A stretch of DNA of 64,000 bases from Neophaeotheca triangularis. Its lineage: Eukaryota. This document shows positions 48,475-52,724 of the stretch, piece after piece (the stretch's first letter is position 1; the number at the start of each line of letters is the position of its first letter). The DNA lies in contig BAAIJX010000003.1 of the NCBI GenBank assembly GCA_054600435.1, positions 434,001 to 498,000 of the forward strand. Direction: 5' to 3'. The position numbers and the translations under genes were made by a program. The notes under the pieces were generated by a model. It saw only the letters and a list, made by a program, of their open reading frames with translations, had not been told where the DNA came from and did not search any database.

Positions 48475-50963
48475 TGTGGGAGTGACGAGGTCGTTTGATG
48501 TGGGTAGTAGGAAGAGGTAGAAGTCTGGACAAAGGTAAGTTAGTGAGAGTGTCCGATTTTTGAGTGTAATTTTCGTCGTTCCGCGACACGAGCTTTTGGT
48601 GGAGTTGCCGCGAGGCGATGCTCAAGGAGCGGGCGGCTTTGAGCAAGTAGTACGCCTTGCGGTTCAGTACAGTCGGGTGGTGGTTGTGCTTACCTTTGGT
48701 ATGGATGGAGTCGTGTGGTAGAAGTAGTCGCCGACTGTCGAGATCGTTGCGTGGGCGGGAGGCAGAAGGAGAGGGAGTTGTAGGAGTGTGAAGCCCAACT
48801 TATGGAAGTTGCAGTGGGAGCGGGAGCACGGGCCCCTGCCGCAACGATAACAACAACAGTCAATGGCAAGAACGGCCGGTCTGAAATTACGAGTGGCTTC
48901 ATCAGACCTCACTTGGGCATGATGGCAATCATCTGACGGTTGGTATCTGGCAAAGAAAAGATATGGATCGCACCCAGGGTCTTTCAGGAAAATAGGGGAA
49001 GCCCGGTGCATCCAACGCCAGTATATTAACGTCTAGGGTTCTGGGCTACGCCCACTGCCTTGTGTATTCGTCGCGGTGATGGTCGGTACGACTAGTACTC
49101 GCTACTGCGAAAGATCCTGGCGAACTCAGTAGACTGATCCTGGGCCTTCGTCACTCGGCGCTCTCGCCAGGCCTGCGTTCACAGAACATCGGATTGCGCC
49201 GCGCCGACTCTACTAGATCGCAATGCAACGGCAGACTCCTATCCTGGAGCGTATGCTCCTCCTCCGCTCTGGAACTCGCCTCGGAGACCCTTCGACGCTG
49301 CGTAGACTTGAACCATGTCCAAGAGGAGTTCCAATACTTCCGACGATCGCCAGCCTCCGATACACGCTTCATCTCGAGCCCGTTGTGCTTCGCTCGCCTT
49401 CCCTGGGACTACGGGAGCTACCAGGCTGCGCTGGAATGCCGTATAAGATAGTTGGGGCAAAATCGTATGGCCGAAAGACTGGCGTCGCACAGTTATTTGA
49501 GGAAGAGAAACGCGAGTGAGATCTCGAATGCGAAGGGCGGGCTTAGCCACACAGTCTGCTGGGTAGAAGCATCTGGTGATCGGTAGCTAGCGTGCCAGGT
49601 GAGGAGATGAGCGCTTGACACCTCACGTCCACTTCATGGGTAGCCGCGGCGGAGCTGAAGGCTTGGAGAGACGCACTGAATGAACCTACGCAGGAAGGAT
49701 GACTGGTCATTTAACGTCACTCTGGTGCCGTTTATACAATCGAGTGATACAGCGGGTCTTGCCAGAGGCTCCCAAAGAGCCGTTTGATTATGCTATAGGA
49801 GAGCTCGTTCGCCTCATGGATGCGGTCCGCCCAAACCCCGGGGCCACCAGCGGATCTAGCAGCATCTCATGCTTGTCTGTATCATACAATATTTTTCTTC
49901 TATTAGCGTTCATCTTTCTCTCTGACTTCTAGTCCTTCGCGTGAACATGTCTGTTTCCGAAGAGATCTACTGCCAGCATCCTCTAGGGTTAGAGTTTGAG
50001 TGCGGTTTTCCTCCTCCGTATCTTCCCACAGGAGCGCCCAGGCGAGTCTTGGGGCAATATACCATCTCCCTGGGTTTTTTCCGTGCCTATAAATGCCCAG
50101 GTGCTCTCGTTTGTATTTATACCGAAGTATCACGTACGGGCATGTTTTACAGCGTACAGCTCCTCAAAGCGAGATTCAAGTTCAGGTCACATAAAGTCCA
50201 GTGTGTCTTGCGTCTCTAGCACGAACATCACTACTTCGTAAATCAAACACCAATTCCTATAAATGCCAAACCCGCCACATGGGCTCGGAATAGGTCGACC
50301 AGCGCCAGGTGTCAATCGTCACGGAGCCATTCGCGCCTCTCACAGATTGTCAACATCACCACGAGCGGCCATGAGCCCCAAAAACGATACGATGGAACCC
50401 GGTCGCACTCTTGTCAATCCCACAGTGCTGGGGGACTAAATTACGACCTCATCATCATTCTGTACATACCTACAAGACTGTTATCAGGCGGTTGACAAGC
50501 GTGACCGAGGTTCAAGAGGCGCAGTTGCCAGAATCTCTTCATCAGACAGCCTTTTCTAGGCAGAGACCATCCACGTTACCCAAAACAACCTCCGCTTTGG
50601 CATTTGGCGACGGGCTCAAGGGTCATCGTTAACGAGGATCAGCTCGGTATGCGTGCAATCCAGCAATAGAACCCAACACTATACCGCCCCAACCATCTAC
50701 CAATGTTACAGGCATCGCTTTGCCAATTGAAACCCGTCCCTGCTCGCACGCCTTGGCCATGTAATTCAAAGGGTAGGATTGAGCGAGAATTCCATGTAAA
50801 GCAAAAAGGTAGAGCCATCGCAATACAGACACACCAATACCTCTTCTCATGGTCATAAGACGACGTATGATCGGATCAATCGCTTTCCGAAGCGGCAGAT
50901 CAAGAAGGGCAAAAACAGGACGCGATGCAATGCAGCAAAACAATCAAAAAGAAATAACACGCA

Positions 50964-51122
50964 TGATTTCCGGCGGGTTCGAACCGCCGACCTTCTGCGC
51001 CCACATTGCTACTGAAGTAGCATGTATGTTAGGCAGACGTGATAACCAACTACTGTAATATTTGTTAGAGACTAGCTCAGAAGTCGAATCTGATATGCGA
51101 GATCACGTACCACCAGGAAACC
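50964..51122 (-). tRNA. tRNA-Val(AAC) with a 58-nt spliceosomal-type intron in the D-stem (51110-51053) and a 27-nt canonical intron after position 37 (51026-51000)
   Basis: Removing both inserts gives GGTTTCC TG GTGT AGTTGGTTA TCAC G TCTGC CTAACAC GCAGA AGGTC GGCGG TTCGAAC CCGCC GGAAATC A, a complete cloverleaf. A T5 terminator lies at 50950-50946. Confidence 0.88.
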
Positions 51123-51960
51123 GTATCAATTGACACACTTAGAAGCCACTTGAAGATAACATCAACGTAGTTGATTAATATATATAGCTCAATTCTGGCC
51201 ATTGGTGCACATTGCACTCAACACAATTTTCCGAGATGGTGAACGCAGGTAGTCCAATCATGTCTAGCGTATCTCTCGGTCTCAATCTGACCACCACACT
51301 TCAATCACAGTCACACATTTTGGCACAGAATGGAGCGACATATTGATACTGACGACAGGCGATATGACGAGACAATTGAGTGTAGTTTAAGAACTCCCCA
51401 GCTACATTATTGCGACTTCGATCGAGCATCTCGACGAGCTGGCCCTGACTTGTCGCACCTAGTTACGGACGAATCCATAGCGGTAAAGGCATTGCTCAGC
51501 ACGCCCCGCAGGAGTCTCGGCCAGTCGGTGCTTCTGATTCTCCAATGACATTCAGCGTAATCGATCTGCCCAACCCTTGAACAGGCCACACAGCCATGGC
51601 CCATTTCAACGAGCTGCCTGGGGTAGTTGAGATTCTCGAACTGTCAAGCCTGGTATCGCTCTTTGGTACGCGGATCACAGGGACGATGTAAAAAAAGCAG
51701 AATAGGATTATTGGAGTCCATTGTCGTTGGGCAAGTTCGAGATTATTAGCCAGTCGGATCAACGTAGCGCCGATGTCGACGAATGAAAGACCGGAAAGCT
51801 CGTGCTCAAACCCCCTTGCTCCCTGATCACCTCCACTACTACCACCGTTGCGTATTGGCGAAAACCTGGACCATCCCATCGTACACCTAAAAGGCCGTGT
51901 TTGACGCCGGGCTAGACCATAAGTACATATACGATTTACCCCCTGCACCACCAACAACCG

Positions 51961-52031
51961 GCATTGGTGGTTTAGTGGTAAAATTAGCCGTTGCCATCGG
52001 CTAGCCCCGGGTTCGATTCCCGGCCGATGCA
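51961..52031 (+). tRNA. tRNA-Gly(GCC), intronless
   Basis: GCATTGG/CCGATGC acceptor stem, AGCCG-TTGCCAT-CGGCT anticodon arm and CCGGG-TTCGATT-CCCGG T arm. Confidence 0.96.
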
Positions 52032-52064
52032 TTCCAATCCTTAGGCGATTGGATTATTTTCCTT

Positions 52065-52163
52065 GGGCGTTTGGTTTAATGGTATAACATCTTCTTAGCA
52101 CTTCCCTTGTTTACAAGGAATGTTAATTGGAGAAGGTCCCCGGTTCGATTCCGGGATCGTCCA
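52065..52163 (+). tRNA. tRNA-Ala(AGC) with 27-nt canonical intron 52101-52127
   Basis: GGGCGTT/ATCGTCC acceptor with G3:U70 Ala identity pair (U6-U67 mismatch), TCTTC/GGAGA anticodon stem, CCCGG-TTCGATT-CCGGG T arm, and a T5 run at about 52179. Confidence 0.92.
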
Positions 52164-52724
52164 CCCATGTTCATTATCTTTTTGCCTTTTCGTTGGTCGA
52201 AAATCAAGTTTTTGTCTTCTCGACTTGACTCTGGGAGTTGGAGATTGTGTCCCATATCTCTTTTGACCCTCACATGTCCTCTGACATCGAATATGCTGTA
52301 GACTGATGGGGAACAATCCGAGTCAACGGATCATGGCGTCGAACGGGGAGCTTCGAAGCCATGAAGAATGTGAAGAGGATGAACAGAGCAGATTGCAATA
52401 GCAAACGATTACGAGGCAAAATGGCTCTAGTTCGCCGTCGGTGGAGATTTCCGCTTGATAACGAGTCACTGGAAGGGCACGCGAAAGGCAGGCAGGTAGC
52501 AGTAGCAGAGGGAGAACGGAAGCATTGATGTGTAGCATTGATCTGTAAAAGTCGTTGATACACCCATCCACGGTCAAGTCATGATACAGTGACCCGTCAT
52601 GCCCAGCCAAACGCCAGGCCGAATCGCTATGCAAGAAAGAAAAGGAAACCGGCCTTAACTAAAATGTGCGAGAGATCGCAGCCTCAATCAACGCCGAAAC
52701 CAACTGATTTTCCCATGCCGTTGC

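Follow-up and report, generated by a model that had tools for sequence, protein, structure and literature searches.

Within the 64-kb window, by which we mean the whole stretch of DNA analysed here, a tRNA-Val(AAC) gene is located on the minus strand (51122-50964), and its three tRNA pieces are split by two inserts. The 5' piece (51111-51122, 12 nt) represents tRNA nt 1-12 and provides the 5' strand of the acceptor stem, U8, G9, and the first three bases of the D stem. It is followed by a 58-nt insert of spliceosomal type at position 12/13 of the tRNA (51053-51110), which is defined by its coordinates, by its splice signals, and by a contig of a second isolate (see below). The sequence left 3' of this insert amounts to 89 nt (51052-50964). 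It starts with tRNA nt 13-37 (51027-51052, 26 nt), comprising the remaining D arm, the 5' strand of the anticodon stem, and the loop bases CUAACA. A canonical tRNA intron of 27 nt at 37/38 follows (51000-51026), for which the anticodon stem forms the outer helix with 4 of 4 pairs. The last piece, tRNA nt 38-73 (50964-50999, 36 nt), contributes the 3' strand of the anticodon stem, the variable loop, the T arm with the B box, the 3' strand of the acceptor stem, and A73. Coordinates and letters of the 12-nt piece, the 58-nt insert, and the remainder had been given in an earlier reading of this DNA (hereafter the original prediction), and all of them were reproduced.

Upon excision of the 58 nt by coordinates, ARAGORN reported a cloverleaf of 74 nt with 7 of 7 acceptor pairs, including one G-U pair, and a standard D loop; it is the 5' piece (51111-51122) that then pairs with 50965-50971 over all seven positions. 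The conserved nucleotides U8, A14, G18, G19, U33, G53, T54, T55, C56, A58, C61, and A73 are all present in the excised product. The claim that an exact GT..AG excision restores a full cloverleaf was thus confirmed by the 74-nt call and by the complete set of conserved nucleotides. ARAGORN labelled the product Pro(tgg), because the program placed the 27-nt intron of the anticodon loop at 34/35. Under the eukaryotic 37/38 rule, the anticodon is AAC (Val) within the loop C32 U33 A34 A35 C36 A37 C38, and the discriminator is A73, in line with the second, canonical tRNA intron that had been proposed for this gene. After excision, the tRNA body (51122-50964) presumably resembles that of a fungal tRNA-Val. 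Every stem is intact, and we saw no decay in the tRNA body or in the splice signals. The analysis hence confirmed a tRNA-Val(AAC) gene that carries a GT..CTAAC..AG insert at 12/13 in addition to a canonical intron at 37/38.

The gene lies in a spacer of 3.5 kb with a GC content of 0.49-0.50, compared to ~0.55 elsewhere in the window. This spacer is flanked by two genes of the minus strand, one encoding a CCHC zinc-knuckle protein and the other a chitin synthase. Intron style, GC content, and gene content point to a filamentous ascomycete as the source of the DNA. We saw no indication of a location of the Val tRNA inside a coding gene; the local open frames (50632-50943 and 51499-52053) match no Pfam family. 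In the whole window, ARAGORN found a tRNA-Gly(GCC) gene (51961-52031), and allowing introns added a tRNA-Ala(AGC) gene with a 27-nt intron (52064-52167). Apart from this canonical intron of the Ala gene, both neighbouring genes are uninterrupted. They are arranged head to tail on the plus strand (51961-52167) with 32-33 nt between them and a TTTT just before the Ala gene, and they may be co-transcribed. The canonical introns of the Ala and the Val genes are identical in length (27 nt).

Detection of the gene and specificity of the excision

In the native sequence, ARAGORN called no tRNA at 51122-50964, regardless of whether introns were allowed. At the gathering score of Rfam, matches in the window were limited to tRNA-Gly(GCC) and tRNA-Ala(AGC), and the Val gene was missed. 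With permissive settings, the Rfam tRNA model reached 16.8 bits (E 3.4) on 50964-51062 compared to a gathering score of 29. The expectation that standard finders may overlook the gene therefore held for ARAGORN, which drew a blank, and for Rfam, which remained below its gathering score.

The specificity of the excision was controlled by removing, one at a time, all GT..AG stretches in the window that measure 35-130 nt and contain a branch-like motif (n = 8,180) and by running ARAGORN on each product. This procedure resulted in 36 tRNA calls. An intact Gly or Ala gene that was merely present in the flank accounted for 29 of them, two were chimeras of the adjacent Gly and Ala genes, and the other five of the 36 were boundary variants that all map to the Val locus. 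Among these five, the 58-nt excision is the sole variant with a clean 7-bp acceptor stem and the standard length of 74 nt. According to our own arithmetic, a random 12-mer would provide the acceptor strand together with U8, R9, and the D-stem pairs with a probability of ~1e-6.

An alternative 5' piece further upstream (excision of 51053-51134) is accepted by ARAGORN as well; it was rejected in view of an 8-bp acceptor stem with a mismatch and the poor donor GTCAAT. The stretch at 51134-51147 (minus strand), just upstream of the real 5' piece, loosely resembles that piece. This likeness may be due to chance or may be a remnant of an earlier duplication that involved the 5' end of the tRNA.

The insert resembles the short introns of the window

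The insert starts with the 5' splice-site hexamer GTACGT (insert nt 1-6; 51105-51110, minus strand), contains the branch motif CTAAC (insert nt 43-47; 51064-51068, minus strand) with the branch A 12 nt from the 3' end, and terminates with the 3' splice site CAG (insert nt 56-58; 51053-51055, minus strand). GTACGT fits the extended 5' consensus GTRNGY, and CAG fits YAG. For comparison, we used a strict pattern taken from the genome's own short introns, consisting of GTRNGY, CTRAC, 6-10 nt, and YAG with a total length of 48-75 nt. Both strands of the window together contain 18 instances of this pattern, compared to 3.47 +/- 2.0 (maximum 10) in 100 dinucleotide shuffles, which corresponds to a shuffle expectation of ~3e-5 per position. 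Eleven of the 17 other elements are surrounded by at least 60 open codons on either side. One of the 17 is located inside the gene with the Pfam chitin synthase match, and four are located in or beside the CCHC zinc-knuckle gene.

The length of the insert (58 nt) falls into the range of the 17 other elements (51-73 nt), and so does the distance from the branch A to the 3' end (12 nt versus 10-13 nt). The start GTACGT is shared by 2 of the 17 elements, and the 3' end is CAG in 15 and TAG in 2 of them. With a GC content of 0.40, the insert is at the low end of the local intron range (0.39-0.55). Its longest T run is 2 nt; since runs in 16 of the 17 local introns likewise do not exceed 3 nt, we regard the absence of T runs as a neutral point. 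The combination of GTACGT, CTAAC, and CAG at the size of local mRNA introns, to which the original prediction had drawn attention, thus has counterparts for each of its parts among the 17 other elements of the window. Overall, none of the features measured sets the insert apart from local mRNA introns, and the spliceosome is the sole plausible machinery for its removal. We are highly confident in the joint conclusion that the gene has the three-piece anatomy described above and that the insert is spliceosomal in nature.

The 64-kb window does not contain a second copy of the 58-nt insert. A multi-copy introner inside the window was considered and rejected; the best other match to the insert covers 11 nt. 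We additionally observed that insert nt 3-9 (ACGTGAT; 51102-51108) are perfectly complementary to tRNA positions 21-27 (51038-51044, minus strand). In the minimum-energy fold of the whole precursor, the 5' splice site is buried in the resulting helix, and the acceptor and the T arms are formed nonetheless. By a rough estimate of our own, ~0.35 complementarities of 7 nt are expected in 159 nt, so that this one is not significant.

Endonuclease-type removal of the insert

Introns in the D arm that are removed by the endonuclease route are known from Crenarchaeota and from nuclear tRNA genes of Cyanidioschyzon merolae (PMC3978253, PMC3728597). By analogy, the insert might be an ectopic tRNA intron of endonuclease type that is cut by Sen at a bulge-helix-bulge, with its GT..AG ends being incidental. 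We therefore searched the insert junctions for this motif, defined as two 3-nt bulges holding the splice sites with a 4-bp helix between them and flanking helices, in both mirror arrangements and for one alternative junction that gives the same product (-1 shift). The central, outer, and inner helices showed 2, 0, and 1 of 4 pairs in arrangement A and 3, 1, and 2 in arrangement B. With the -1 shift, the two arrangements gave 2, 3, and 1 and 0, 3, and 2 of 4 pairs, respectively. No bulge-helix-bulge thus qualifies at the insert junctions in either arrangement, with or without the shift, which makes removal by the tRNA endonuclease unlikely. The canonical intron of the Val gene served as a control, and its outer helix, the anticodon stem, was fully paired.

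Two further points argue in the same direction. The tRNA-splicing enzyme of yeast measures from the mature domain to 37/38 (PMC10275265), and a site in the D stem would, by analogy, not be found by a measurement of this kind. Moreover, the reading of the insert as an endonuclease-type intron leaves the full set of local spliceosomal signals at local spacing as an unexplained coincidence. Taken together, we consider cleavage of the insert by Sen highly improbable.

The insert is present in a second isolate

The five sequencing runs listed for this locus are all DNA runs, and we compared four of them, X2 to X5, with the window over 50500-52300. X2 is an independent run of a related isolate; it bears the same organism label as the probable source run of the window, contains 0.42 of the sampled words, and covers 30 of 30 bins. 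One of its contigs (record 2, 140 nt, depth 101) aligns to 51027-51165 without gaps and with three differences. Two of these are substitutions within the insert, both C to U in the RNA sense: one at 51083 (insert nt 28) and one at 51070 (insert nt 41), the latter 2 nt before CTAAC. The third difference is located within ~30 nt of a contig end, that is, in 51027-51057 or in 51135-51165. The insert has the same length in X2, and its 5' splice-site hexamer, branch motif, and 3' end are kept among the differences listed.

The gap-free presence of the insert in an independent run shows that it is no assembly artefact. A chance resemblance or an assembly artefact is also opposed by the pattern statistics and by the excision control, and we regard this explanation as effectively refuted.

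The surroundings of the insert differ in their degree of change. X2 deviates from the window at 6 of 284 positions in 50616-50899, at 4 of 570 positions in 51238-51807, and at 12-13 of 131 positions in the upstream flank (51137-51267, two alleles). The region of the canonical intron is represented by two contigs (depths 157.8 and 86.5), both of which differ from the window: one of them has four substitutions and six added letters, the other lacks three letters. In addition, one X2 contig has a different flank at 50964. We read the contig graph as a 31-mer graph. The first of the two canonical-intron contigs ends at ~51056 and overlaps record 2 by 30 nt, which suggests that it adjoins the contig bearing the insert. 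As judged from their sequences, the X2 contigs suggest alleles and/or further Val(AAC)-like copies.

In the stretch directly preceding the Val gene, X2 is ~10% diverged from the window compared to 0.7-2% nearby. Over 51137-51267 and 52136-52276, the run contains two contigs each of roughly half depth, and each of them is unlike the window; the X2 sample seems to hold two haplotypes or two strains. Contigs of X3 and X4 stop short of the Val locus, and X5 gave no contig over 50500-52300. In X4 (a volcano metagenome) and X3 (an air metagenome), contigs match tRNA-Gly(GCC) at 51961-52033 with unrelated flanks. X3 additionally shows a perfect match to ~380 nt of unique flank, which points to a close relative of the source organism in that air sample.

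Promoter elements of the interrupted gene

The internal promoter of a tRNA gene consists of the A box at tRNA positions 8-19 and the B box at positions 52-62 (PMC3978253). In the Val gene, the 58-nt insert splits the A box at 12/13, so that a contiguous internal A box is absent. The B box remains intact, at normal spacing from the A-box half that is left (positions 14-19). An A-box-like stretch inside the insert was considered and, judged by eye, rejected as too weak. Downstream, a T5 run (50946-50950, minus strand) starts 14 nt after the 3' end of the tRNA and may serve as a terminator for RNA polymerase III. Since T runs in the insert do not exceed 2 nt, polymerase III would not be stopped within it.

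Upstream of the gene, we found the TATA-like element TATATATATTAA (12 nt; 51175-51186, minus strand), 53-64 nt from tRNA nt 1, which might act as an upstream promoter of the Val gene. TATA-like loci number 3, 8, and 11 in the window for the 8-, 7-, and 6-mer forms, respectively, and are present in 0.5-1.6% of 100-nt windows. However, 5 of the 11 hexamer loci fall in the AT-richer spacer of the Val gene, where the local chance is nearer to one in ten. In view of this enrichment, the position of TATATATATTAA may be due to chance. The five hexamer loci cluster within 49700-51200, where no open frame matches a protein family, and this stretch may hold promoters of unannotated non-coding transcripts.

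The TATA-like element is located at a distance that is usual for polymerase II, the insert is typical of introns in polymerase II transcripts, and the local open frames lack a protein family. The locus might thus be part of a non-coding polymerase II transcript from which the intron is spliced, and the tRNA-like part might be a processing signal, a source of fragments, or without any function. This explanation has to contend with the fact that all features of a decoding tRNA are kept, including the canonical intron, the B box, and the T5 run. We judge it to be improbable.

Candidate readings: a redundant copy with a transposed intron or a live tRNA gene

Two readings remain in the foreground. 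We place first, by a small margin and at slightly less than an even chance of being correct as a whole, that the locus is a redundant, un- or weakly productive copy of a Val(AAC) gene that carries a transposed U2-type intron. A complete and locally typical U2-type spliceosomal intron would have been inserted in sense orientation at 12/13 of a nuclear tRNA-Val(AAC) copy. The excised intron may have been re-inserted by reverse splicing, with either a tRNA transcript or the displaced strand of the DNA in an active tRNA gene as the target, or an intron cDNA may have been put back into the gene. Intron transposition would explain the exact GT..AG ends and the sense orientation of the insert. The ends are exact in a gene in which no reading frame could select for precision, and together with the completeness and the sense orientation of the insert this fits the re-insertion of an excised intron.

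With regard to expression, TFIIIC would still bind to the intact B box and to the 14-19 half of the A box. By the rule known from yeast, TFIIIC sets the start of polymerase III ~20 nt upstream of the A box. If applied to the remaining A-box half, the start would be located inside the insert, and the transcripts would begin downstream of both the 12-nt 5' piece and the 5' splice site. The tRNA would then be supplied by other Val(AAC) copies, and the locus would be a young, still undecayed record of the gain of a spliceosomal intron in a polymerase III gene. We rank the unproductive copy first on account of this predicted start and of the apparent presence of other Val(AAC) copies.

Several observations are at odds with an unproductive copy. 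The tRNA body and the splice signals are wholly undecayed, which counts against it. Both substitutions listed for the insert in X2 (nt 28 and 41) lie outside the 5' splice site, the branch motif, and the 3' splice site. By our own arithmetic, the probability that two random hits in a dead copy spare all 14 signal bases of the 58-nt insert is ~0.58, and it is ~0.2 if the exons have to be spared as well. A dead copy is also opposed by the absence of indels from the insert in X2, compared to much stronger change in the canonical intron and the upstream flank. Furthermore, the strong TATA-like element 53-64 nt upstream could drive a transcript that includes the 5' piece. Finally, the start inside the insert is predicted with TFIIIC rules from yeast, that is, by analogy with another organism, and this equally counts against the reading.

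The alternative is a live, doubly interrupted tRNA gene, to which we assign a substantial probability that is below even. Here, the spliceosome would remove the 58-nt insert, and the Sen endonuclease together with a ligase would remove the 27-nt intron. With a similar degree of reserve, the precursor would start upstream of the 5' piece and would be made either by polymerase III via the TATA-like element or by polymerase II. Likewise tentatively, splicing would rebuild the D stem, and trimming of the ends by RNase P and RNase Z would result in tRNA-Val(AAC). The intactness of the tRNA body and of every splice signal is in agreement with a live gene, as are the TATA-like element at 53-64 nt, the lack of a T run in the insert, and the T5 run after the gene. 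X2 keeps the insert, the substitutions listed are at non-signal positions without an indel, and nearby neutral sequence changed more, although the third difference in X2 could fall in tRNA nt 13-37 or in the last bases of the insert.

Against a live gene stand the split A box and the distance of ~120 nt between the TATA-like element and the remaining A-box half, which is beyond the range over which TFIIIC is known to place TFIIIB. The TATA-like element itself may be positioned by chance given its enrichment in the spacer (5 of 11 hexamer loci). The minimum-energy fold pairs the 5' splice site with the 3' strand of the D arm, and X2 apparently contains other Val(AAC)-like copies.

Precedents from other systems bear on the same question. 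For tRNA genes of Cyanidioschyzon with interrupted A boxes, an upstream TATA-like promoter has been proposed, and TFIIIC-independent transcription from a TATA box has been reported for yeast in vitro (PMC3978253). In fission yeast, a spliceosomal intron is removed from a polymerase III transcript, the U6 RNA (PMC5855946). These three precedents are the basis for the weight that we give to a live gene. Spliceosomal introns are additionally present in fungal U2, U5, U1, and U3 genes and in ascomycete rDNA (PMC5855946, PMC5832005). The interpretation offered by the original prediction, a tRNA that needs two splicing machineries, is supported in part: the structure, the likeness to introns, and the failure of finders stand, and the production of the tRNA by two machineries is a prediction. 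The split of the A box and the Val(AAC)-like copies, neither of which had been weighed, speak against a productive gene.

Significance and comparison with known systems

Introns of tRNAs, which are removed by a protein endonuclease, and introns of mRNAs, which are removed by the spliceosome, are treated as separate worlds in textbooks. If the Val gene is productive, both splicing pathways meet in one molecule, and the spliceosome acts on a tRNA precursor with a first exon of 12 nt. It would then be the first known case of a tRNA whose maturation needs the spliceosome, which would have to act before the tRNA-splicing endonuclease. A class of fungal tRNA genes that finders pass over or dismiss as pseudogenes would thereby have its first visible representative, and fungal tRNA gene counts from standard finders would be incomplete. 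If the copy is dead, it represents the footprint predicted for intron transposition via reverse splicing into a highly transcribed gene, and the non-coding targets of introns (U6, U2, U5, U1, U3, rDNA) extend to tRNA. In either case, excising candidate introns and rescanning the products can be applied to whole fungal genomes in order to gauge the frequency of such genes.

In the full-text literature, whose coverage leaves out most subscription journals, we came across no tRNA gene described as carrying a spliceosomal intron, and the passages on spliceosomal introns in PMC3879985 contain nothing on tRNA genes. The literature searched agrees with the earlier statement that tRNA genes of this sort are not known to form an established class. 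A loose pattern consisting of the 5' piece and GTNNGT matched at least 119 stretches in metagenomes. Four of these passed a filter for two of three motifs, and none of those listed carries the remainder of the tRNA. A tighter pattern spanning the insert gave 0 matches in prokaryote genomes and viral contigs, which are collections without fungi. We classify the Val gene as a variant of two known phenomena, namely non-coding RNA genes that contain spliceosomal introns and tRNA genes that are disrupted, in a combination for which the literature searched offered no description.

The closest precedents are spliceosomal introns in genes that encode no protein. The hosts described include U6, U2, U5, U1, and rDNA (PMC5855946) as well as fungal U3 (PMC5832005). 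Like the Val gene, fungal U2, U5, U1, and U3 genes and ascomycete rDNA carry ordinary spliceosomal introns without encoding a protein. This set includes genes that are not transcribed by polymerase II; none of its members is a tRNA gene.

Fungal U6 genes such as that of fission yeast contain mRNA-type introns (Tani and Ohshima 1989, 1991; Canzler et al. 2016; as cited in PMC5855946). Like the Val gene, fungal U6 is a small, structured RNA gene of the polymerase III class with canonical splice signals, and excision restores the RNA, in the Val case in silico. Fungal U6 introns show no conservation outside the splice signals, and the Val insert can be likened to them in this regard. For their origin, reverse splicing into the RNA followed by reverse transcription and recombination has been proposed (PMC5855946). 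A second route, discussed for introner-like elements, has an intron reverse-spliced into the DNA strand that is displaced in a transcribed gene (PMC11146597), and the Val insert fits both routes alike. Unlike the Val tRNA, however, U6 is located in the catalytic centre of the spliceosome, which accounts for a possible reverse splicing into U6. U6 is often encoded by a single copy, so that intron removal is obligatory, whereas the Val gene appears to have paralogues. Moreover, the Val insert splits an internal promoter element, and splicing of the Val transcript is a prediction from the DNA sequence.

Among disrupted tRNA genes, those of Cyanidioschyzon merolae and of archaea share with the Val gene the interruption of the D arm in addition to that at 37/38, and they are missed by standard finders (PMC3978253, PMC3728597). 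Cyanidioschyzon merolae further resembles the Val gene in the interrupted A box and in an upstream TATA-like element as a possible promoter (PMC3978253). In contrast to these introns, which contain a bulge-helix-bulge and are removed by the tRNA endonuclease, the Val insert displays spliceosomal signals. The same distinction applies within the Val gene itself: compared to the canonical intron of 27 nt at 37/38, the insert is located at 12/13, is twice as long, and is without the features used by Sen.

With regard to its possible origin, the insert can be compared to introner-like elements, which likewise represent short, complete, non-coding introns at a new site in sense orientation (PMC11146597). 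Such elements and the experimental transposition of introns have been the subject of several studies (van der Burgt 2012, Lee and Stevens 2016, Simmons 2015; cited in PMC11146597). Introners, however, are multi-copy and target coding genes, whereas the Val insert is single in the 64-kb window and is located in a tRNA gene.
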